Shown here in pieces: positions 13,150 to 48,267 of a DNA stretch of 64,000 nucleotides; positions within the stretch are counted from its first letter, which is position 1, and the number at the start of each line of letters is the position of its first letter. The position numbers and the translations under genes were made by a program. The notes below the pieces were generated by a model. It searched no databases. It was not told where the DNA came from and was given only the letters and a program-made list of their open reading frames with translations. The stretch spans positions 64,857-128,856 of the forward strand of contig JACPAY010000001.1 of the NCBI GenBank assembly GCA_016180575.1, read 5' to 3'. The stretch comes from Candidatus Omnitrophota bacterium (GTDB lineage Bacteria > Omnitrophota > Gorgyraeia > Aquiviventales > Aquiviventaceae).

Positions 13150-13196
13150 CGTCTGCTCATCCTCGTTGTTCTGTCCGATTCCTCGCTCACGGAGCG

Positions 13197-13267
13197 CTGG
13201 GGAGCCAGGACTCGAACCTGGACGTGGAGCTTCAAAGGCTCCTGTGCTGCCGTTACACTACTCCCCA
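13197..13267 (-). tRNA. tRNA-Gln (anticodon UUG)
   Basis: Hand-folded cloverleaf: UGGGGAG/CUCCCCA acceptor stem (U1-A72, as in Gln tRNAs), GUGU/GCAC D stem, GGAGC-CUUUGAA-GCUCC anticodon arm and CCAGG-UUCGAGU-CCUGG T arm. The discriminator is G and CCA is not encoded. Ends are good to about 1-2 nt. Confidence 0.9.
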
Positions 13268-20531: not shown

Positions 20532-20695
20532 AAAATGGGCTGCTGAAGCCTTCGCTTCGGCAGCCCACCCTTCCGGTGCGACGCACCGGACGCGCGGCTT
20601 TGCGTCCCCCGCTCACGCGGGGTTTGCCTTTCTCGGCGTCCGCGTTGTCTGGTTATAGTCTGCCTGATGCCGGGCGGGATTGGCAAGGGGCGGGG

Positions 20696-36687: not shown

Positions 36688-36736
36688 ATAGCGCAATAGT
36701 AGTGTATAGAAGGAACGCGCCGGCCAGGAGGTGTGG

Positions 36737-37642
36737 ATGGACTCAGTCGCAACGGGTGGCATGGTGCTGGCAGCACCGCGGACAAAATGGGAGATCGCGG
36801 CCGGCATCGCCATCGTGCATGCCGGTGCCATGCTGGCGCCCTTCACGTTCACCTGGAGCGCCTTCTGGGTGTTCTTCGTCCTCCAGTTCCTCACCGGCCT
36901 GCTCGGCGTCACGCTCTGCTTCCACCGGCTCCTCGCGCACCGCAGCTTCCAGGTCCCCAAGTGGCTCGAGTACGCCCTGACCGTCTGCGGCTCGCTGGCG
37001 CTCCAGGGCGGGCCCATCAAGTGGGTCGCCACCCACCGGGTGCATCACGCGTTCTCCGACCGCCCGCAGGACCCCCACAGCCCCACCCGCGGCTTCTGGT
37101 GGGCGCACATGCTGTGGCTCTTCGCCTACGATGAGGTGATCGACCATCCGACCAAGTACCACCGCTACGCGCCGGAGCTGGCCCGCGACCCGGTCCACCG
37201 GTTCATCGAGAAGACGTTCGTCTGGCACACCATCCTGTTGGGCGTCGTCCTGTTCGCGGTGGGCGGGCTGCCGTGGCTCGTGTGGGGGTTGTTCTTCCGC
37301 ACCGCCTTCGTCTACCACGCCACGTGGCTCGTGAACTCCGCCGCCCACCTCTGGGGCTACCAGAGCTACAACACGAATGAGGGCTCCCGGAACAACTGGT
37401 GGGTCGCCTTGCTCTCGTACGGCGAGGGCTGGCACAACAACCACCACGCCTACCTCCATTCAGCCGCGCATGGGCTGCGCTGGTGGGAGGTCGACATCAC
37501 CTACCTCACGATCCGCGCGCTGGCCTGGCTGAAGCTGGCCACCCGCATCCGGATGCCGCAGGGCAATCCGGCCAAGCTGCCCGCCATCAAGCCGATTTCG
37601 GTGCGGCCGCTCCGGCTGCCGATCCCGACCCTCTCGGTCTAA
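36737..37642 (+). CDS. acyl-CoA/acyl-lipid delta-9-type fatty acid desaturase
   Basis: His boxes HRLLAH, HRVHH and HNNHH. SD CCAGGAGG lies 6 nt before ATG 36737. The track starts at GTG 36731. Confidence 0.9.
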   Translation: MDSVATGGMVLAAPRTKWEIAAGIAIVHAGAMLAPFTFTWSAFWVFFVLQFLTGLLGVTLCFHRLLAHRSFQVPKWLEYALTVCGSLALQGGPIKWVATHRVHHAFSDRPQDPHSPTRGFWWAHMLWLFAYDEVIDHPTKYHRYAPELARDPVHRFIEKTFVWHTILLGVVLFAVGGLPWLVWGLFFRTAFVYHATWLVNSAAHLWGYQSYNTNEGSRNNWWVALLSYGEGWHNNHHAYLHSAAHGLRWWEVDITYLTIRALAWLKLATRIRMPQGNPAKLPAIKPISVRPLRLPIPTLSV

Positions 37643-37650
37643 CAAAAAAG

Positions 37651-37700
37651 AAAAAGGTACCGGGTACTTTTCCCGCTTTGGGAAGTACCCGGTACTTTTT
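37651..37700. terminator. Family B hairpin repeat, copy B3, acting as a bidirectional intrinsic terminator
   Basis: AAAAAGGTACCGGGTACTTTTCCCGCTTTGGGAAGTACCCGGTACTTTTT lies between the convergent desaturase (stop 37642) and the oxidase IV-like gene (stop 37702). The stem of about 18 bp is flanked by an A-run on one side and a T-run on the other. Confidence 0.75.
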
Positions 37701-37701
37701 G

Positions 37702-37980
37702 TTACAGCCGGATGAGGAAGCTGGAGAAGACGACGCCGAGGGCGAGGGCGATCAGCCCGAAGGGGGCGAGCGCGACGAACGCGAGGAGCCGCCGGTCGCC
37801 CTTGAGGTGCATGTAGAAGAGCGCGACCAGCGCGGCCTTGATGGAGGAGAGCGCCACGACGATGCCCACGATGCCCGCGCGCGGCAGGCGCAGGAGCGGC
37901 CATTCCGACAGGACCACCCCCAGCAGCATGAGCCCTGCCAGCCATCCCCAGATAATCAGATAGAGCCTCGTCCCAGCCAT
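37702..37980 (-). CDS. heme-copper oxidase subunit IV-like small membrane protein (CyoD/QoxD-type)
   Basis: 92 aa with 3 TM. ..AALVALFYMHLK.. resembles prokaryotic COX4 proteins. It directly follows the subunit III-like gene. Confidence 0.7.
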   Translation of the reverse strand: MAGTRLYLIIWGWLAGLMLLGVVLSEWPLLRLPRAGIVGIVVALSSIKAALVALFYMHLKGDRRLLAFVALAPFGLIALALGVVFSSFLIRL

Positions 37981-37983
37981 CGC

Positions 37984-38577
37984 CTAGAAGAGGTAGAGCA
38001 TCGGGAACAGGAAGATCCAGACGATGTCCACGAAGTGCCAGTAGAGACCGGCGTACTCCAGCCGGTGCCCGCGGGCGGCCCACGCCGATTGGGAACGGGC
38101 ATAGGCGAGCACCCAGAGATTGAAGACAATCCCGCCGAGCACGTGCAGCGCGTGGAAGCCGGTCAGGACGAAGTAGCACGACCAGAAGATGTTGGTGCTC
38201 GGAACGATGTGGTGGGAGAACTTCGCGGCGTACTCGAACCCCTTGATGATGAGGAAGCAGGAACCCAGCCCGGCTGTCGCCAGCAGCCAGCCGCGCGTCA
38301 TCCCCAGCGCCCCCCGCCCGGAGGCGGCCAGCGCCAGGACGATGGTCGTGCTGCTGCAGATGAGGATGAGCGTGTTGGCCGTCCCGATCCCCACGTTCAG
38401 GTGCCCCTCGGAGCCCGGCCAGGCGGGGTTCCCCATCCGCAGCACGATGTAGGCGCCGATGAGGCCGGTGAAGAACATCACCTCCGAGGCGAGGAACACC
38501 CACATCCCCAGCTTGCCGCTGGGGATGTGGGTGGCGGTCTCAACCGCGGGATGACCCGCCGTCGCGGTGGTGCTCAT
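37984..38577 (-). CDS. heme-copper oxidase subunit III family protein (CyoC/QoxC/NorE-like)
   Basis: 197 aa with 5 TM: GMWVFLASEVMFF.GL, FHALHV.GG and WHFVD.VW.FLF. No subunit I or II gene is present in the window. Confidence 0.85.
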   Translation of the reverse strand: MSTTATAGHPAVETATHIPSGKLGMWVFLASEVMFFTGLIGAYIVLRMGNPAWPGSEGHLNVGIGTANTLILICSSTTIVLALAASGRGALGMTRGWLLATAGLGSCFLIIKGFEYAAKFSHHIVPSTNIFWSCYFVLTGFHALHVLGGIVFNLWVLAYARSQSAWAARGHRLEYAGLYWHFVDIVWIFLFPMLYLF

Positions 38578-38583
38578 CCACTC

Positions 38584-39105
38584 CTAGAACGCGACTGGCT
38601 TGCCGTCCGCGTCCTGCACGTCCACGCCGCCGTCCGCGCGCGTCCGGGCGACGAACAGCGTGCGGCCGGTGTCGTCGGACCCGACGGTGACCCCGTCGCG
38701 CCGCGACAGCCGCAGGCTGCCGGCCGGCTGGCCGTCGCGGAATTGCTCGACGAGCAGCTCGGGCGCCTCGTATGCCGACGGCGTATAGGTCAGCACGGCC
38801 TCCGCCTCGCCGCGGACGATGCGCTTGGTGGCGGGGTGGTTTACCCCTGCGGTCGTCGGCGGATCAACGGGGTTGTTGCCGGTCCAGAACTCCATGGAGT
38901 TGAACACGACCGCGTCGCCCAGCACCGCGACGCCGTAGATGGGCAGCCACGCGAGGATGAGGAACATGAACTCCCGTTCCCACTTGGCGCCGACCTGCTC
39001 GTTCCACCGGTAGAGCCGCCGGGTGAGGTTGAACGGCCCGAAACACCCGCTCGTCAACAGCCCCAGCGCGACCAGCACGATCCCCGTACGCAGCGCTCGA
39101 TGCAT
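38584..39105 (-). CDS. DUF3332-like lipoprotein
   Basis: 173 aa from ATG 39105, preceded by SD GGGAGGGG. Lipobox LLTSGC then FNLTRRLYRWNEQVG.KWEREFMFLILAWLPIYGVAVLGDAVVFNSMEFWTG.NP. Confidence 0.65.
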   Translation of the reverse strand: MHRALRTGIVLVALGLLTSGCFGPFNLTRRLYRWNEQVGAKWEREFMFLILAWLPIYGVAVLGDAVVFNSMEFWTGNNPVDPPTTAGVNHPATKRIVRGEAEAVLTYTPSAYEAPELLVEQFRDGQPAGSLRLSRRDGVTVGSDDTGRTLFVARTRADGGVDVQDADGKPVAF

Positions 39106-39156
39106 CTGGCCCCTCCCTGTTGTCACGCGCCCCACGTGACCGTAGCGTAACACACG

Positions 39157-39948
39157 TCATTCCCCTTCGCAACCGATGATGAGGCCGCGCGCGGCCCAAC
39201 CGGCGAACCAGTCGGCCACCGGAGGGGCGTCACCCGCCTGCGCCGCCAGCTCCCCGCACACGGCGCCGAGCGGGCGGCCGGCCAGCAGCCCTTCCAGCAC
39301 CGCGTGCTGGCGCTCGTCCACGAGCTCGCAGCGGACCTCCAATCCCTGGCGGAAGACGAGGACGCGCTGGGGGCGGCTGATCAGGTCAATGTCAACCGCC
39401 GGGCGGGGTTGGGTGCGCGCGGCCCAGATGTCGAGGATGGGCCAGGCCGATGCCACGAGCCCGATCGAGGGCTGGAAGACGACCCGCGCGCGGTCCCACG
39501 CCTCAAGCGGCAGCTGGGCGAACCGCCGGGGGTCGATCGGAGGGGCCTCAAAGGCGTGGAACGCCTCGCGGACGGCCCACTCCAGGCGCGCGAGGTCCGG
39601 CAGGAACGGCAGCGTCGAGGTCAGCGGCCAGTCGGCGAGGAACGCGGCCAGGTGGCGGCCGGCCAGGCTGAGGTTGTAGTGCTGCGACGGGTAGCGGTCG
39701 GCGTAGCCGCGGCTCATCTCCGTGAAGGCGCGCTCACCCGCGACATGGCGGATGGCCTCGTACGCCTCGGCGAGCGATTGGCGGATGCGCGCGACGTAGC
39801 CCCCGGCGTACACGGCGAGCCGCTCGGCGCCGGGCGTGCCCCGCTGGGGGTTGAGGAGGTCCGATGGAACGCCGGGGGGCGAATCGCCGCCGGGACGGAG
39901 CCGGGACTTGACCCACCGCTGGACCTCGGCCAGTGGCGGTCCGCTCAT
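39157..39948 (-). CDS. bufC: DUF2063 family protein (BufC/MbnC-like partner of the MNIO enzyme)
   Basis: 263 aa from ATG 39948. Contains ..LAVYAGGYVARIRQSLAEAYEAIRHV.GE.AF. and LARLEWAVREAF. It sits immediately downstream of the DUF692 gene. Confidence 0.75.
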   Translation of the reverse strand: MSGPPLAEVQRWVKSRLRPGGDSPPGVPSDLLNPQRGTPGAERLAVYAGGYVARIRQSLAEAYEAIRHVAGERAFTEMSRGYADRYPSQHYNLSLAGRHLAAFLADWPLTSTLPFLPDLARLEWAVREAFHAFEAPPIDPRRFAQLPLEAWDRARVVFQPSIGLVASAWPILDIWAARTQPRPAVDIDLISRPQRVLVFRQGLEVRCELVDERQHAVLEGLLAGRPLGAVCGELAAQAGDAPPVADWFAGWAARGLIIGCEGE

Positions 39949-39959
39949 CGCGCGGGGGC

Positions 39960-40871
39960 TCACGGCCGCGCCGGCGTTTCGGCGGGCTGGCCGCCGAGGA
40001 CCTGGACGTAGATGGCGCGGGCCCGGTCGGCTTCCTCCGCGAGCCGCGCAAAGGGCGGGATGTCCTCGTCCCATTCGATCAGCGTGGTCACCGGCCCCCA
40101 GCGGGTGAGCGCCTCCCGGTAGAGCGCCCACACCTCGTCGATGACGGGGCGGCTGTGCGTGTCGAAGAGGTACCCGCCCATGTCGGTGTGCCCGGCGAGG
40201 TGGAACTGGCCGACCAGCTCGCCCGGGATGCCGCGGAGGTACTCGAGGGGGTCGAACTGGTGGTTGTAGGCGTTGACGTACACGTTGTTCAGGTCAAGCA
40301 GGATGCCGCAGCCGGAGCGCTCGGCGACGGCGGCGAGGAACTCCCATTCCGGCATCGTCGAGTGCCGGTAGGTCACGTAGGCGGAGACGTTCTCCAGCAG
40401 GATCCGGCGCCCGAGCCGCTCCTGCACCTCGCCCACCCGGCCGGCGACGTGCCGGACCGCTTCCTCGGTGAACGGCAGCGGCAGCAGGTCGTGGAGCTGC
40501 TCCCCCTCCACGCCGGTCCAGCAGAGATGGTCGGAGACGATGGCCGGGTCGATGCGGTCCGCGAGCGCCTTGAGGCGCTCAAGGTAGCGGGGATCGAGCG
40601 GGTCGGAGGAGCCGATCGAAAGCGAGACGCCGTGGAGCGCGACAGGATAGCGGCGGCGCACCGCTTCCAGGATGCGCAGCGGCCGGCCCCCGGAGTCCAT
40701 GAAGTTCTCCGAGATCGCCTCGAACCAATCCATGCGCGGCCAGTCGCGGGTGATGAGGTCGTAGTGCTCGCTGCGCAGCCCCACGCCGCAGCCCAGCGAC
40801 GGCCACCTGGAAAAATGGGACCGGGTGTATTTTTCTATGGTCCTCTGATTGAAAAATATACCCGGTCCCAT
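39960..40871 (-). CDS. bufB: DUF692 / MNIO family (multinuclear non-heme iron oxidative) RiPP-modifying enzyme
   Basis: 303 aa with GVGLRSEHY, FEAISENF, VALHGVSLSIGS, SDHLCW and a TIM-barrel-like pattern. The only in-frame ATG (40871) lies inside repeat B'. CTG after an AGGTGG SD is an alternative start. Confidence 0.85.
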   Translation of the reverse strand: MGPGIFFNQRTIEKYTRSHFSRWPSLGCGVGLRSEHYDLITRDWPRMDWFEAISENFMDSGGRPLRILEAVRRRYPVALHGVSLSIGSSDPLDPRYLERLKALADRIDPAIVSDHLCWTGVEGEQLHDLLPLPFTEEAVRHVAGRVGEVQERLGRRILLENVSAYVTYRHSTMPEWEFLAAVAERSGCGILLDLNNVYVNAYNHQFDPLEYLRGIPGELVGQFHLAGHTDMGGYLFDTHSRPVIDEVWALYREALTRWGPVTTLIEWDEDIPPFARLAEEADRARAIYVQVLGGQPAETPARP

Positions 40872-40905
40872 TTTTCGGTCCCGTTTTTTCCCGGTCCCGC
40901 GGTCC
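40810..40905. repeat. Family B' repeat array between bufA and bufB
   Basis: GAAAAATGGGACCGGGTGTATTTTTC (40810-40835), a 15-nt spacer, then GAAAAATATACCCGGTCCCATTTTTC (40851-40876). The inverted repeat matches at 25/26. It is followed by degenerate GGTCCC(G)TTTTT units up to 40905. Confidence 0.85.
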
Positions 40906-41202
40906 TTACGCGGCGGGCTCGGCCGCTTCCGGCTCTTCGGTCAGGCGGCCGCCCTCGATCCGCAGGCAGTCGTCCTTGTCCAGCTCAATGTAGCTCTGCC
41001 CCTTGCAGGCGTTCTGCCCGGCGCAGGAGTGGCCCTTGCCGCCACAGTCGCCGGTCCCCTGGCACTTGTTGACGCCGTAGCAGTGGACGGTCTCGCCGGC
41101 CTCTTCCGCGGCCTGCGCCTGCTGCCCCAACGAAACCCCTGCTGCCGCCAGCAATCCGGCGACCGACGCCGCCAACAGCGCCCGTTGCGTCTTGCCCTCC
41201 AT
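40906..41202 (-). CDS. bufA: DUF2282-type secreted Cys-rich RiPP precursor (bufferin-like)
   Basis: 98 aa from ATG 41202, preceded by SD GGAGGAGG. Sec signal MEGKTQRALLAASVAGLLAAAGVSLGQQAQA. The core is HCYGVNKCQGTGDCGGKGHSCAGQNACKG...DDC, with 6 Cys. Confidence 0.8.
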   Translation of the reverse strand: MEGKTQRALLAASVAGLLAAAGVSLGQQAQAAEEAGETVHCYGVNKCQGTGDCGGKGHSCAGQNACKGQSYIELDKDDCLRIEGGRLTEEPEAAEPAA

Positions 41203-41237
41203 CCCGTACCCTCCTCCGGTTGATGTGCACCCGCCCC

Positions 41238-41822
41238 TCATTTCACAATCCCTTCGATCTCGAGCGTGATCTCCACCTCGTCCCCCACCAGCAGCTGGCC
41301 GGTCTCCACCACCTCGTTCCAGGTGAGCCCGAACTCCTTCCGGTTGATCGTGACCGTCGCGGTGAAGCCGGAGCGCTGGTTGCCCCAAGGGTCCTTGCCT
41401 TCCCCATGGACGGCCAGATCCAGCACGACGGGCTGCTCGATCCCGTGGATCGTCAGGAGCCCGTGCAGCTTCGCGCCGGCCTCCGTCGCATCGGTCACCT
41501 GGGTGCTGGTGAACGTGATGGTGGGGAACCGCGCCACGTCGAAGAAGTCCTTGGAGCGCAGGTGGGTGTCGCGCTTCTCCACGCGCGTGTCGATGCTGGC
41601 GGCCTGGATGACCGCCTGCGTCTTCCAGTGGTCCGGCTGGCCGGGCACGTACTCGAACGTCCCTTCGAACTCGTTGAAGGTCCCTCGGACGTAGGAGAAG
41701 AGGTGGCGGATCTTGAAGGTGACGGTGGAGTGGTCCTGGTCAATCGTGTAGGCGGTCGCCCAGACCGGCGGCGCGACGAGCAGCGTCCCCAGGACAGCCG
41801 CAATCCCTATGTGCTGACGCAT
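41238..41822 (-). CDS. YceI family periplasmic polyisoprenoid-binding protein
   Basis: 194 aa. Signal peptide, then Y.ID..HS.V.F.I.H...S.V.G.F and ..L.GDLT(I)HG.. Confidence 0.88.
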   Translation of the reverse strand: MRQHIGIAAVLGTLLVAPPVWATAYTIDQDHSTVTFKIRHLFSYVRGTFNEFEGTFEYVPGQPDHWKTQAVIQAASIDTRVEKRDTHLRSKDFFDVARFPTITFTSTQVTDATEAGAKLHGLLTIHGIEQPVVLDLAVHGEGKDPWGNQRSGFTATVTINRKEFGLTWNEVVETGQLLVGDEVEITLEIEGIVK

Positions 41823-41850
41823 GAGATGACCTCCCTAGGCAGGAAACCTT

Positions 41851-41879
41851 ATCTTGATGCCACGGCCCGGCGTTGTCAA
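41851..41879 (-). promoter_or_regulatory. candidate promoter of the yceI-buf operon
   Basis: Minus-strand TTGACA (overlapping the arsC stop), N17, then CAAGAT. The -10 is weak. Confidence 0.3.
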
Positions 41880-42274
41880 GCCCCGGTCCGGCGGCTCATC
41901 AACGCCCGGACGGATGCGCCGAGCTGATCCCGCACCCGGCGGGCCTCCTCGAGCGGCATCGCGACAGGGTCCGGCACCTCCCAGTCGATCCGCTGCCGGG
42001 CCGGCACCGCCGGGCAGGCATCGCCGCAGCCCATCGTGACCACATAGTCCCAGGTCCGCCTCGGGATGTCCGCCAGCCCCTTCGAGCGGTGGCCGGAGAG
42101 ATCGAGGCCCAGCTCGGCCACGAGCTGCGCCGCGATCGGGTGGATCTGGCCGCTCGGACGCGAGCCCGCGCTCCAGATGTCCCATCCTGCTCGGCCAAGC
42201 GACTTGGCCATCGCCTCCGCCATCTGGGAGCGGCAGGAGTTGGCCACGCAGACGAACAGGATGCTTGGCATCAC
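41876..42274 (-). CDS. arsC: arsenate reductase ArsC (low-MW phosphatase fold)
   Basis: 132 aa with ILFVCVANSCRSQMAEA and TMGCGDACP. Confidence 0.75.
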   Translation of the reverse strand: MMPSILFVCVANSCRSQMAEAMAKSLGRAGWDIWSAGSRPSGQIHPIAAQLVAELGLDLSGHRSKGLADIPRRTWDYVVTMGCGDACPAVPARQRIDWEVPDPVAMPLEEARRVRDQLGASVRALMSRRTGA

Positions 42275-42810
42275 TCGCTGGTCATCGGCTCCGTGAGCAC
42301 GATCACGCCGCAGCCGATGCGGCCGCCGGCGTTGCCGGTCGGCTGGCTGAAATCGTCCGCCCGCTCATGCACGACGATCGACCGGCCGCCGACGCTGAAC
42401 GGGCCGCTGCCGAGGATGACGCCGGGCAGGGTGACCGTCAACGAGCCCGACCCGTCCTTCCCGACGTCGATGTTGCCCATGTCTCCCGGGTGCGCGCTCG
42501 TCACCCCGTCCTTCGGCACGAACCCGTGCGGGGTCTTCTCGGGGTTGAAGTGCCCTCCCGCGGCCTCGCCTCCCCGCGCGCAGTCGCCATACTGGTGGAT
42601 GTGCACCGCGTGCTGCCCGGGCGGGGCGCCGGCGAGCTGCACGGTCACCGCCACGCCATCCGGCGTGTCCTGCAGGGTGACGGTCCCGAGCACGCCGGGC
42701 TCCTTCGTTGACCCGATGACCGCCAGGCCATTCTCCGCCCATGCCGCCGCGGCGCCGATCCCCATCGCCATCGCCGCCATCCCCGCCGCCCACATCGATC
42801 CCGGTTTCAT
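42271..42810 (-). CDS. sodC: periplasmic Cu/Zn superoxide dismutase
   Basis: 179 aa from ATG 42810, with SD GAGGAGGG and an ATGA overlap. Contains HAVHIHQYGDC, GGHFNP, HPGDMGN and VVHE..DD. Confidence 0.9.
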   Translation of the reverse strand: MKPGSMWAAGMAAMAMGIGAAAAWAENGLAVIGSTKEPGVLGTVTLQDTPDGVAVTVQLAGAPPGQHAVHIHQYGDCARGGEAAGGHFNPEKTPHGFVPKDGVTSAHPGDMGNIDVGKDGSGSLTVTLPGVILGSGPFSVGGRSIVVHERADDFSQPTGNAGGRIGCGVIVLTEPMTSE

Positions 42811-43469
42811 CGAGCCCTCCTCATTGTTGATGACGACCGCCTCTTCCACGCCGCTTGCCAGAGCAGGAGTCCCATGATGGCCAGGAGCGCCAGCATCAGC
42901 TTCCACGCCTTCGCGAGATCGGTCAGCGAGTAGCCCAGGTACACGAACGCGATGCTCCAGGGGATGATGCCAAGCAGCGTCGCGAACGCGAAGGGGGCGA
43001 AGCGCACCCGGGAAAACCCCAGCCCGTAGTTCTGGACGTCGAACGGCAGATTGGGGATGAACCGGATCAACAGCACCGCCTTGAAGCTGTTGCGGCCCAC
43101 GCGCTCGTCCAGGGACGCCACCCGGCCCTTCAGCAGCGCCGCGACGGCCTCGCGTCCGAGCAGCCTCGCGACGACGAACTGCCCGCAGGCCCGGATCGTC
43201 GCGCCCGTCAGGGCCGCGAGCGTGCCCCAGAGCGGGCCGAACGCCAAGCCGCCGGTGATCGTCATCACGCTCGCCGGCAGCGGGATGAGCGGCTGGCCGT
43301 AGGCCAGGAGATAGATCGCGGGGGACCAGACGCCGAAGGACAGCACGAAGCCCCGCACCCTCTCGGGCGTGAGCGCGGCCACGTTCAGCCCCATGGCCGC
43401 GAGCGCCCAGCCGATGCCCACGATGAGCAGGAGCAGCGCCGCGAGCTTTGCCCAGGCGGAACCGGTCAT
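42807..43469 (-). CDS. TVP38/TMEM64 (DedA-like, SNARE-associated) membrane protein
   Basis: 220 aa from ATG 43469. Multi-TM, with LIPLPASVMTITGGLAFG and RFIPNLPFDVQNY. Confidence 0.75.
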   Translation of the reverse strand: MTGSAWAKLAALLLLIVGIGWALAAMGLNVAALTPERVRGFVLSFGVWSPAIYLLAYGQPLIPLPASVMTITGGLAFGPLWGTLAALTGATIRACGQFVVARLLGREAVAALLKGRVASLDERVGRNSFKAVLLIRFIPNLPFDVQNYGLGFSRVRFAPFAFATLLGIIPWSIAFVYLGYSLTDLAKAWKLMLALLAIMGLLLWQAAWKRRSSSTMRRAR

Positions 43470-43485
43470 GGGGCCCTTCGGCAGC

Positions 43486-45597
43486 TCAGCGGCCAAGCGC
43501 ATCGAGGAGGCGCGCGAGCTCGGCGCGGTCGGTGACCGGGAGCTGGCAGACGTAGCGCTCACAGACATAGGCGGTCGCATGGCCCTCCAGGGGACGCTGG
43601 GTTTTGATGAAGGGGATGAGCGCTTCGACCGCGGCGGAGGTCCCGTTGGCCGGCTGCAGCGCCAGGACCGCCCGCGGGAGGAAGCGCGAGTGGACCGCGC
43701 GGAGCATCGCGCGGGTCGCGGCATCTGCCGGCGTCCCGGCGATCACGATCTCCTGCGAGGGGCCCAGCCAAAAATCTGCGGCGATGAGGAACTGCGGAAA
43801 GGCGGTGGGCGATTGATCCGCCAGGCCGGAGAAGGCCTGAAGCTGCCGCTCCGCGCGGCCCTGGAGGTCGCGGTCCATCGTCAGGATCCCAAGGCGGACG
43901 AGGTTCAGCGCGGCGACCGAGTTCCCTGAGGGGAGCGCCCCGTCGTAGAGCTCCTTCGTCTTGGCGATCAACCGCTCGTTGCGGTCTCCGCTGAAGAAGA
44001 AGCCGCCGCCCGACTCATCCCAGAAGCCGCGGACCGTCTCGGCCGTCAGGCGCCTGGCCTCCGACAGCCACCGCGCGTCGAACGTCGCCTCATAGAGGTC
44101 CGTCAGGCCCCACGCGAGGAAGGCGTAGTCGTCCAGGAACGCGGGGATCGAGGCCTCTCCGTCCCGGTAGCGGTGGAGCAGCGTGCCCTGAGCGGAGTCG
44201 AAGGGCCGGCCCTCGCGCTGCAGCCGGTCCAGGATGAACGCGGCCGCGGCCTGCGCGGCGTCGGCGTAGCGCGGCTCATCCAGGACGCGCGAGCCGTAGG
44301 CGAGGGCGCCGATCATCAGGCCATTCCAGTCGGTGAGGATCTTGTCATCGAGATGCGGCCGCCTGCGCCGGCCCCGGGCGGCGAGCAGCGCATCGCGCGC
44401 CGCCGACAGCCGCCTGCGGAGGTCCTCCGGCGGGAGTCCTTCGCGCCGGGCGAAGGCGTCGAGCGGCTCCTGGATCGACAGGATGGTCGTCCCATGCTCG
44501 AAGTTCCCCGACGGCGTCACCCCGTAGAAGCGGCTGACCAGCGCCGCCTCCTCGGAACCGAGGACCCCCTCGATCTCCTGCGGCGTCCAGACGTAGAACT
44601 CGCCCTCCTTCCCCACCTCGCCTGCATCCTCGGCGGAGCGGAAGGCGCCGTGCGGGTCGCGCAGATCGCGCAGCACATAGTCGAAGATGTCCCGGGCCGC
44701 CTCGGCGTATTGCGGCTTGCCGGTGGCCTGGTGCGCTTCCAGGTAGGTCCGGGCCAGCAGCGCCTGGTCATAAAGCATCTTCTCGAAATGCGGCACGAGC
44801 CACCGCTCATCGGTCGAATAGCGGTGGAACCCGCCGCCCAGGTGGTCGTGGAGGCCGCCGCGGGCCATCGCATCCAGCGTGGTCTCGACCATCTCCAGCG
44901 TCTTCGGGTCCCTGCCCCGGGACCAGGCCCGCAGGAGGAACGAGAGGCTATGGCTCCGGGGGAACTTCGGGGCCGGGCCGAATCCGCCGTGGGCGGGATC
45001 GTACTGCGCGGCGAACTGGCTCGCCGCGCGCTCAAGAATAGCCAGCGTCAGCGGCGCCGACTGGCCGGCGGCCGCGCTCGCTTGGATCGCCTGCGTCAGC
45101 GACCGGCTGGAGGCCAGGAGCTCCCCGCGCCGCGTCCGCCAGGCCTCGCTGATGGACCGCAGCAGGGTCTTCAATCCGGGACGGCCCCACCGGTCCTCCG
45201 GCGGGAAATAGGTGCCGCCGTAGAACGGCTGGCCCTCGTGGGTGAGGAAGACGGTCATGGGCCAGCCGCCGCTGCCCGTCATCGCCTGGACGGCCGTCAT
45301 GTAGATGCCGTCGAGGTCCGGCCGCTCTTCGCGGTCGACCTTGATGGGAACGACGGTCTCATTGAGGAGCTTGGCGATCTCGGGATCGTCGAACGACTCC
45401 TGCTCCATGACGTGGCACCAGTAGCAGGTGGAGTAGCCGACGGAGAGCATCACCGGCTTGTCCTCCCGCTTCGCCTTGGCGAAGGCCTCCTCGCCCCAGG
45501 GGTGCCAGTCCACCGGGTTATACGCGTGCTGGAGGAGGTAGGGGCTCTTCTCGTGGATGAGGCGGTTCGGGCTGCGGCCCTTTGCGTCAACCGACAT
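43486..45597 (-). CDS. thioredoxin-domain protein (YyaL/DUF255, SSP411-like)
   Basis: 703 aa with [18 protein letters not shown]...[16 protein letters not shown], followed by an (alpha/alpha)6-like C-terminal domain. Confidence 0.88.
44185..44205. repeat. Family D single unit inside the yyaL-like gene
   Basis: GCCCTGAGCGGAGTCGAAGGG matches 16 of 20 bases of the msrA unit CCCCGAGCGAAGTCGAGGGG. It is translated as ..RPFDSAQG.. Confidence 0.6.
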
Positions 45598-45611
45598 GGG
45601 ACCCGACTACT

Positions 45612-46562
45612 CTAGCGCGCGGCGTGCTCCGCAAGCCAGCGCTCGCAGTCCATGGCGGCCATGCAGCCGCTGCCGGCGGCGGTCACCGCCTGCCGGTACC
45701 GCTTATCCTGCACGTCGCCGCAGGCGAAGACGCCGGGCACCGAGGTGACGGTGCTGCCCGGCTGGGTGATGAGGTAGCCGTGGTCGTCCATGTCCAGCTG
45801 GCCCTTGAAGAGCGAGGTGTTGGGGTCGAAGCCGATCGCGTAGAAGAGCCCTCCGCAGGCCAGCTCCCGCGCAGCGCCCGTCTTCACGTGCTTGAGCCTC
45901 ACGGCGGACACCGCCTCCTCGCCCAGGACGTCCTCCACGACCGTGTCCCAGATGACCTCGATCTTCGGGTGCTTCAGCACCCGCTCCTGCATGATCTTCG
46001 AGGCGCGCAGGGCAGCGCGGCGGTGCACCAGGTAGACTTTCGAGGCGAACTTCGTCAGGAAGGTGGATTCCTCCGCGGCGGAGTCGCCGCCGCCGACCAC
46101 CACCAGCGCCTTGCCGCGGAAGATCGGCAGCGCCCCGTCGCAGACAGCGCAGGCCGACATCCCGTTGTTCCAGAGCGTCTTCTCCCCCGGCAGGTTGAGC
46201 CGCCGCGCGGTCGCCCCGGTCGCGATGATGAGCGTCTGGGCGGCCACCTCGCGCTGGGAGGAGGCCACGACGAACGGCCGCTTCGAGAGATCTGCCCGCG
46301 TGACGTCCTCGGTGAAGATGCGCGTCTCAAAGCGCAGCGACTGCTTGCGGAAGGCCTGCATCAACTCGGGGCCCTGGATCCCCTCCGGGAAGCCCGGGTA
46401 GTTTTCCACCTCGGTGGTGGTCATGAGCTGGCCCCCTGGGATGCCGCCGGCCGAATACCCCTCGAACAGGATCGGCTTCAGGTTGGCCCTGGCGGTGTAG
46501 ATCGCGGCGGTGTGGCCGGCCGGCCCTGAGCCGATGATGACGACCTGTTCCGGAGTGGCCAT
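45612..46562 (-). CDS. trxB: thioredoxin-disulfide reductase
   Basis: 316 aa with [12 protein letters not shown], the redox CAVCDG motif and GGGDSA.EE. Confidence 0.95.
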
Positions 46563-47967: not shown

Positions 47968-48150
47968 TCAGCGGCCGGGACCTGTCCCTTTCCGCTTGGA
48001 GAAACAATCCCTGCAGTAGACCGGGCGGTCTCCGCTGGGCTTAAAGGGGACCTCGCATTCCTGTCCGCAATCCGCACAGGTGGCCTTGTGCATCTCGCGA
48101 GGTCGTCCCCCAAAACCACCACCACCACCTGGACCTCCACCGAACGGCAT
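47968..48150 (-). CDS. small CxxC-x17-CxxC zinc-ribbon protein with Gly-rich N-terminus
   Basis: 60 aa from ATG 48150, with SD GGAGGGG 6 nt upstream: CADCGQECEVPFKPSGDRPVYCRDCF. A strong promoter lies about 120 nt upstream. Confidence 0.75.
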   Translation of the reverse strand: MPFGGGPGGGGGFGGRPREMHKATCADCGQECEVPFKPSGDRPVYCRDCFSKRKGTGPGR

Positions 48151-48267
48151 CCGTGCCCCTCCACTCACCGGTCCGGCATCCGGACGCCGCGTGAGCGCCC
48201 GTGCCCTGACCCGGTTCTGCCCGTCTGCGCGGCGCCGGCCCATGCGCGGCGGCCGCCAGACCCCGAC

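Follow-up and report, generated by a model that had tools for sequence, protein, structure and literature searches.

A Buf2-class bufferin operon with YceI, lipoprotein and orphan oxidase subunit III/IV genes in a Candidatus Omnitrophota genome

The window considered here is a stretch of 64,000 nucleotides from a Candidatus Omnitrophota bacterium (assembly GCA_016180575.1, contig JACPAY010000001.1, positions 64,857 to 128,856 of the forward strand). Within its positions 37702-41822 lie seven minus-strand genes, which open reading frame (ORF) and hidden Markov model (HMM) searches identify, from 5' to 3', as YceI, BufA2, BufB, BufC, DUF3332, COX3 and COX4 (Table 1). An original prediction, made from the letters of the DNA, had read these seven genes as an operon for a bufferin, that is, a peptide made by the ribosome and modified after translation (RiPP) matured by an oxidative enzyme that depends on multinuclear non-heme iron (MNIO). 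Both the gene positions and the type of operon were confirmed, with BufA2 and BufB reaching NCBIfam equivalog cut-offs and BufC its Pfam cut-off. The profile searches used Pfam and NCBIfam/TIGRFAM models with their cut-offs. The intergenic gaps, measured on the sequence itself, are 35, 34, 11 (or a 4-nt GTGA overlap), 51, 6 and 3 nt from YceI through COX4.

The bufferin core, its accessory genes and hairpins

Read from the sequence, BufA2 has a Sec signal (..GQQAQA/AEE) and a core with six Cys, five of which are invariant in the alignment of homologues, the sixth being kept in six of seven. A BufB-type MNIO follows directly downstream and a DUF2063 partner comes next. This is the arrangement of the Buf2 (BUF_6/12Cys) class, which was defined on C. 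vibrioides buf2ABC (CCNA_02999-03001), where a Sec-signal precursor with six Cys is likewise followed by BufB and then a DUF2063 BufC, with no bufD/doxX (PMC11626156; PMC12452194). The two marks of the Buf1/gig class, a DUF2282 precursor with four Cys and a DoxX gene, are both absent. The original prediction had considered the six Cys and the lack of DoxX to be unusual. Six Cys are indeed present, and none of the seven genes matches DoxX in the profile search; however, six Cys are found in 90% of Buf2 precursors (PMC12452194), Buf2 operons normally go without DoxX, and even in Buf1 DoxX is dispensable for function and modification (PMC11626156), so that neither trait is an anomaly here. The precursor had also been expected to belong to DUF2282, which was not borne out. 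It has no match at all in the local Pfam copy, and none to PF10048/DUF2282 even at E <= 1, and it is NF050166 that places it as BufA2 instead. We note that a precomputed annotation, apparently based on a newer Pfam, assigns PF10048:BufA1 to homologues of 87% identity, including that of L001 (numbers of this form denote the related loci discussed below). The other family calls of the prediction, to DUF692, DUF2063, DUF3332, YceI and the oxidase III/IV-like proteins, held (Table 1). From these profile and class comparisons we regard it as very nearly certain that the core is a regular Buf2-class bufferin operon, a member of a known family.

Relative to C. vibrioides buf2ABC, the window adds YceI on the 5' side, DUF3332 and the oxidase III/IV genes on the 3' side, and a large hairpin between bufA2 and bufB; the ORFs examined include no recognised SigF/NrsF genes, and the host, unlike the proteobacterium C. 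vibrioides, belongs to an uncultured high-GC lineage. With the Buf1/gig operons (DUF2282-MNIO-DUF2063-DoxX; C. vibrioides buf1ABCD, Cupriavidus gig) the window has in common the enzyme pair and the logic of a Sec-exported thiooxazole copper chelator. In contrast, the Buf1 precursor is a DUF2282 protein with four Cys, as against the window precursor with six Cys and no DUF2282 match in the local scan, and Buf1 operons have DoxX and often sigma/anti-sigma genes, which the window operon lacks.

At the level of individual proteins, the motif WPxLGCGVGLR is present in all BufB homologues compared, and the nearest solved structure to BufB is 3bww, a DUF692 protein; a PDB sequence search with BufA2 gave no match. 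BufC has a weak match to NF050145 HvfC, under the cut-off of that model, and its start is placed at ATG 39948, the alternative GTG 39963 overlapping the bufB stop as GTGA. YceI scores 169.5 bits against PF04264 and 162 against NF002994, whose equivalog cut-off is 232, and is thus a member of the family rather than an orthologue of E. coli YceI. For the DUF3332 protein the likeliest start is ATG 39105, which yields a lipoprotein signal, MHRALRTGIVLVALGLLTSG followed by C (lipobox LTSG/C, the whole ending ..LLTSGC).

The hairpin between bufA2 and bufB has a minimum free energy of -53.7 kcal/mol (z = -7.7; none of 200 shuffled sequences folds equally well) and, with an A-run before it and a U-run after it, is terminator-like, sharing its architecture with the terminator 3' of COX4. 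Its 5' arm, one of two arms of 29 bp, holds the bufB ATG at 40871, and upstream of the conserved motif WPxLGCG there is no other canonical start codon. L001 and L094 retain this fold, although, in a comparison of three sequences only, 13 of 33 pairs have both of their bases changed; L083 and L092 have unrelated strong hairpins at the equivalent position, that of L092 being followed by a T-run. An excess of precursor over enzyme is common in RiPP operons, and the folding and position of this hairpin suggest that it is probably a partial terminator (attenuator) and/or an occluder of the bufB start, keeping the precursor above the enzyme. The hairpins at 40810-40876 and 37652-37700 share an AT-flanked GGKACCGGGT core, a motif with three occurrences in the window, where 0.42 would be expected, and the two may represent one family, terminator-like or of the repetitive extragenic palindrome kind, in this genome of 70% GC.

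The original prediction had bounded the operon with a candidate promoter at 41851-41879 and a bidirectional terminator. The hairpin downstream of COX4 is real; it is the sole clear terminator of the cassette and is shared with the convergent desaturase gene. The promoter fared less well. There is a perfect TTGACA at 41879-41874, but it overlaps the LMWPc stop codon, its -10 element is poor, and a sigma-70 scan of 37400-42400 found no promoter-like site. The locus gave no match to a known RNA family in an Rfam scan. The 5' coding region of COX3 (38497-38533, minus strand) also contains a perfect palindrome of 16 bp with a loop of 5 nt. The palindrome was rejected as a feature, being mostly specific to the window: relatives keep only a 7-bp core, CCCCAGC..GCTGGGG, which encodes PSGKLG, and the palindrome is therefore probably codon-driven.

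Table 1. Features of the cassette and its neighbours, with window coordinates and supporting matches
Feature	Coordinates	Strand	Evidence
YceI-family periplasmic protein, 194 aa	41238..41822	-	PF04264 E = 8.4e-50; signal peptide ..PPVWA/TAYT; first cassette gene
BufA2 bufferin precursor, 98 aa	40906..41202	-	NF050166 Cu_RiPP_BufA2, 74.1 bits vs cut-off 60
RNA hairpin 3' of bufA2, 29-nt arms	40810..40876	-	inverted repeat I1, 93% complementary
BufB, MNIO (DUF692) bufferin maturase, 303 aa	39960..40871	-	NF050167 MNIO_BufB, 380 bits vs 310; PF05114 E = 1.3e-110
BufC, DUF2063/HvfC-type partner, 263 aa	39157..39948	-	PF09836, 54.4 bits vs 27.2
DUF3332 lipoprotein, 173 aa	38584..39105 (ORF to 39153)	-	PF11810 E = 9.5e-27, 94.2 bits vs 25
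Heme-copper oxidase subunit III (COX3), 197 aa	37984..38577	-	PF00510 E = 1.5e-18
Prokaryotic oxidase subunit IV, caa3 type (COX4), 92 aa	37702..37980	-	PF03626 E = 8.5e-12, 45.7 bits vs 28.9; TIGR02229, 44.2 bits vs 37.25
Terminator-like bidirectional hairpin	37652..37700	.	inverted repeat I2, 18-nt arms, 94% complementary, A-run and T-run flanks
Convergent fatty-acid desaturase gene	36731-37642	+	PF00487
LMWPc/ArsC-like	41876-42274	-	Pfam
Cu/Zn SodC (Sod_Cu)	42271-42906	-	Pfam
VTT/DedA	42807-43724	-	Pfam
Thioredox_DsbH	43486-45597	-	Pfam
TrxB-like	45612-46562	-	Pfam

Distribution of the cassette and its joining to COX3-COX4

A scan of metagenome contigs anchored on BufB returned 80 loci (BufB 59-87% identical), and the denominators given here are the loci with enough upstream or downstream sequence. 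A BufA2 gene was seen in 60 of 67 loci, and in 46 of 54 the gene immediately upstream of it is YceI. COX3 follows BufC in 14 of 42, at a distance of 31 to 2325 nt, and in 13 of these 14 COX4 is found as well. The other 28 of the 42 have neither DoxX nor COX3/4, and their downstream genes are heterogeneous: among ten downstream ORFs of COX3-less loci searched with Pfam there was no conserved gene and no DoxX after BufC, the matches being DUF218, PNPOx, Thioredox_DsbH, CstA, DUF3313, DUF3047, DUF2238 and MgtE, with two ORFs matchless. The COX3-less loci include L118 and L136, whose BufB is 79% identical to that of the window. These counts point to YceI-BufA2-BufB-BufC as the stable unit of this subclade, and to DUF3332 and COX3-COX4 as accessory. 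The survey of BufB neighbourhoods that the original prediction proposed thus yielded COX3 neighbours for a part of the relatives and not for the rest. Judged by gene content across the loci, COX3/COX4 is probably not needed for bufferin maturation and probably not a replacement for DoxX, because most of the close relatives lack the pair and nothing is conserved after BufC in its place.

The COX3 relatives at 72-91% identity share one syntenic block (L001, L083, L084/85 and L086/87), with the order Thioredox_DsbH-LMWPc-YceI-BufA-BufB-BufC-(0-3 DUF3332-like)-COX3-COX4, followed on the 3' side by the convergent desaturase gene and then by purB, purC, purS, purQ and purL. L084 and L086 keep the adjacency of Thioredox_DsbH, LMWPc and YceI, with junctions that are 24-28 nt long or overlapping. 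The slot between Thioredox_DsbH and YceI itself varies, holding DedA, SodC and LMWPc in the window (41876-42906 compared), a DsbA-like thioredoxin and DedA in L001 (5035-5823), and LMWPc in L084 and L086, where AhpC and SodC lie on the opposite side of Thioredox_DsbH. Variable as well is the number of DUF3332-like lipoprotein genes between BufC and COX3, from zero to three copies in relatives. This interval, which looks like a lipoprotein array that expands and contracts among relatives, also holds a 198-aa protein without a Pfam match (L084 6100-8004; L086 6775-8004; L104, L108, L110).

A scan of GTDB genomes extends the comparison to more distant COX3 proteins. Among the matches listed, homologues of at most 53% identity lie nearly all in canonical COX2-COX1-COX3 operons, and the only close COX3 relative is L003, which ends at a contig end. 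The match that departs from the canonical operons is L028, on a contig of low GC whose flanks are unrelated. L028 and L092 both read YceI-BufA2-BufB::BufC-COX3-COX4, YceI again heading the cassette, with a gap of 7 nt between BufBC and COX3 and with COX3 and COX4 overlapping. The L028 COX3 is only 43-45% identical to that of the window. It is 66-71% identical to the COX3 of L088 and L089, which belong to complete operons (COX2-COX1-CtaA-CtaB-COX3-COX4-...-SCO1-DUF420), and of L093, an orphan COX3-COX4 pair without Buf at a partly syntenic site; L091 has a further orphan pair, at 63% identity. Taken as pairs, the COX3/COX4 of the L088/L089 operon, a canonical A-family cox operon of Omnitrophota-like metagenome-assembled genomes, are 66-69% identical to those of L028 and 43-46% identical to those of the window. 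The conserved residues are the same, but the window pair has neither subunits I/II nor the haem A genes beside it and instead closes a RiPP operon at its 3' end. In a neighbour-joining (NJ) tree of COX3, the window clade (clade A hereafter) is monophyletic in 100 of 100 bootstraps, L028 and L092 group with L093, L088 and L089 (clade B) in 95 of 100, and all Buf-linked COX3 proteins together are monophyletic in 0 of 100. Since the Buf-linked COX3 proteins fall into two separate clades, the cassette has been joined to COX3-COX4 at least twice.

In the low-GC lineage, BufB and BufC are fused in one ORF of 565-584 aa (L028 8296-9993; L092 5226-6980), and since two independent contigs carry this fusion, a sequencing artefact is not the explanation. 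Small ORFs upstream of the orphan pairs of L093 and L091 were considered as stray bufferin precursors and ruled out, as they are not Cys-rich.

Identity of COX3 and COX4

The window COX3 is of the short form and aligns over its full length with the ~200-aa CtaE/QoxC/CyoC subunits; it scores below the equivalog cut-offs of CtaE, CyoC and QoxC. In an alignment with 78 operon-encoded COX3 proteins, nearly all columns that are at least 85% conserved among these are retained in both Buf-linked clades. These two clades differ consistently at one residue only, 37, where T replaces G, as it also does in the orphan pairs; the alignment revealed no new His/Cys site common to both clades. All PDB sequence matches of COX3 are real oxidase subunit III chains, the nearest being actinobacterial aa3 CtaE (7q21_E and 6adq_G); an exact-sequence look-up of COX3 found nothing on record. 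COX4 had no match in the PDB sequence search, and its gene, 3 nt after COX3, encodes a protein above the cut-offs of the COX4_pro and caa3_sub_IV models, as expected of an oxidase subunit IV. Neither protein shows in its sequence any sign of a new function. With the canonical residues kept, and with the nearest relatives of one clade lying in complete cox operons, the pair looks like genuine A-family (aa3/caa3-type) oxidase subunits whose genes have become detached from coxBA.

There is a precedent for a subunit III homologue away from the oxidase core in NorE/NorF (NirO/NirP), where nitric-oxide reductase clusters encode a COX3-like protein together with a small membrane protein. The window locus contains no nor or nir genes.

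On the upstream side of the cassette, the genes for SodC and for ArsC-like, DedA-like, thioredoxin-domain and TrxB proteins that the original prediction named were confirmed with Pfam. These redox and metal genes (41876..46562, minus strand) are closely spaced and co-oriented with the cassette, and may share a transcript with it. Elsewhere, the window contains its sole tRNA gene, tRNA-Gln (TTG), at 13196-13267 (minus strand), and a c-di-GMP-I riboswitch aptamer at 20556-20638 (minus strand; RF01051, 58.4 bits vs 35), which bears no relation to the bufferin locus. A small ORF at 47968-48243 (minus strand) encodes a Gly-rich stretch and then a zinc-ribbon-like CxxC...CxxC C-terminal tail (ATCADCGQECEVPFKPSGDRPVYCRDCF).

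Possible explanations and what they would mean

With somewhat more confidence than doubt, we read the locus as a Buf2 operon that is co-transcribed, and so co-regulated, with YceI, a lipoprotein gene and the detached genes of a genuine oxidase subunit III and IV. The cassette junctions of 3-51 nt and the position of the only clear terminator, after COX4, were counted for co-transcription. By homology to C. vibrioides Buf2, BufA2 would be synthesised carrying its Sec signal. In the cytoplasm, the multi-iron, O2-dependent BufB, guided by BufC with its RiPP recognition element, would then turn the four central Cys into 5-thiooxazoles. Export of the peptide, cleavage of the signal after AQA and formation of a disulfide between Cys I and Cys VI would give a small folded bufferin able to chelate periplasmic copper, and the hairpin masking the bufB start would probably keep the precursor in excess of the enzymes throughout. 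On this reading, copper buffering, the copper-dependent O2-reducing oxidase and the defence against oxidative stress (SodC, thioredoxins) would also be induced jointly by O2 or copper. The logic of such joint induction would be that BufB needs O2, and that the oxidase and SodC need copper.

Several observations weigh against this reading. The prediction that no catalytic subunit I or II would be found in the window proved right: tblastn with COX1/COX2 references taken from the loci found neither in the 64 kb, a single match at E = 0.009 being spurious and inside the desaturase gene, and there is no COX1/COX2 in the flanks (6-10 kb) of any Buf-linked locus either. The pair is thus not encoded with subunits I and II, as a subunit III ordinarily would be, in the window or in any of these flanks. 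Cytochrome c oxidase is moreover patchy across Omnitrophota (PMC10066038). Proteins 81-90% identical to those of the window come from metagenome-assembled genomes (MAGs) labelled Candidatus Omnitrophica by NCBI, and the phylum label of these relatives rests on the names given by the source. The NJ tree was built on a membrane protein of 190 aa, and the loci of the window clade, having syntenic flanks, are not independent observations. Lastly, orphan COX3-COX4 pairs occur without Buf or nearby COX1/COX2 (L091 7001-7965; L093 7001-7878), so that the adjacency could stem from insertion beside a resident pair.

This last possibility, when spelled out, is that the adjacency has no meaning: a mobile YceI-BufABC unit would have inserted on the upstream side of an orphan COX3-COX4 pair already in place, or the other way round, and vertical inheritance would have done the rest. 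The shared upstream and downstream flanks of the clade-A loci, which reduce them to roughly one event, fit such a history, as does L093 of clade B, which has COX3-COX4 at the same syntenic site without Buf, and so does the lability of the linkage, lost or absent in L118 and L136 despite their close BufB. It does not, however, easily account for two separate origins with different COX3 clades and different flanks, for junctions of 3-33 nt or overlaps, which leave no room for a promoter of the pair's own, or for the regularity by which the insert of zero to three lipoprotein genes always lies inside the cassette and COX3-COX4 always at its 3' end. On balance we consider chance adjacency unlikely.

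We give about the same low weight to a functional coupling of the bufferin to cuproenzymes. Here the bufferin would be a periplasmic copper store or chaperone that serves or protects an aa3/caa3 oxidase and SodC, or else, together with YceI, the lipoprotein and COX3/COX4, it would form part of a membrane module that has departed from the oxidase. If this were true, the two independent joinings of the cassette to COX3-COX4 would reflect selection for coupling between bufferins and cuproenzymes.

A shade less probable still is that COX3/COX4, YceI and DUF3332 constitute a membrane module dedicated to the bufferin and working outside any oxidase, as an anchor, as a redox or quinone-linked partner, or as the substitute for DoxX that the original prediction had suggested. 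That the pair is an orphan in every Buf-linked locus, that the junctions are operonic, that the linkage is found in two unrelated COX3 clades, and that clade-A COX3 is 65-91% identical where BufC falls to 48-60% would all suit such a module. Subunit III of the oxidases, however, has no redox cofactor, and the Buf-linked proteins keep essentially all canonical subunit III residues without a His/Cys-rich site common to both clades; clade-B COX3 is 66-69% identical to genes of complete cox operons; and among the closest BufB relatives two in three have neither the pair nor any substitute. For the replacement of DoxX in particular we find no support: with COX3 canonical and DoxX normally absent from Buf2 and dispensable even in Buf1, there is no vacancy to be filled.

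Returning to the co-transcribed and co-regulated operon that we favour, what is new in it is the gene neighbourhood, the core chemistry and function being almost certainly the known ones. The continuation of a bufferin operon into a lipoprotein and an orphan COX3/COX4 pair, which the original prediction believed to be undescribed, is real and, as far as the literature was searched, undescribed. COX3, COX4 and DUF3332 go unmentioned in the bufferin surveys, the supplement of PMC12452194, the Antarctic-soil paper and other MNIO papers, and full-text literature searches for MNIO together with a cytochrome c oxidase subunit found no description of the linkage. YceI appears in that bufferin literature in a single Legionella cluster only, the biosynthetic gene cluster of Legionella pneumophila subsp. 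fraseri at CA927_RS07990, which has YceI and cytochrome b (supplement of PMC12452194). This is the one noted example with cytochrome b; in the subclade of the window, by comparison, the partner is COX3/COX4 and YceI is nearly constant. We note that the bufferin survey paper set a limit of 10 bp on the distance at which an unrelated gene was still assigned to a cluster. Under this rule YceI, with its 35-nt gap, and DUF3332, with its 51-nt gap, together with the COX3-COX4 that follow, would have been excluded.

When bufferins were described in 2024, it was as the largest group of MNIO RiPPs. Copper-stress buffering is the only role assigned to them, and DoxX and sigma/anti-sigma factors are the only conserved accessory genes that the published surveys report. 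A bufferin subclade with near-constant YceI, and the joining of oxidase III/IV genes to the operon on two occasions, had not been reported before. Detached subunit III/IV genes are met with repeatedly in these lineages, and oxidases called from MAGs could be wrong on their account; that such genes can exist apart from coxBA in uncultured lineages bears on the inference of aerobic capacity from MAGs. The overall effect of these findings is modest. They nonetheless suggest a concrete link, open to test, from bufferins to the way in which membrane and periplasmic cuproenzymes are supplied or protected.

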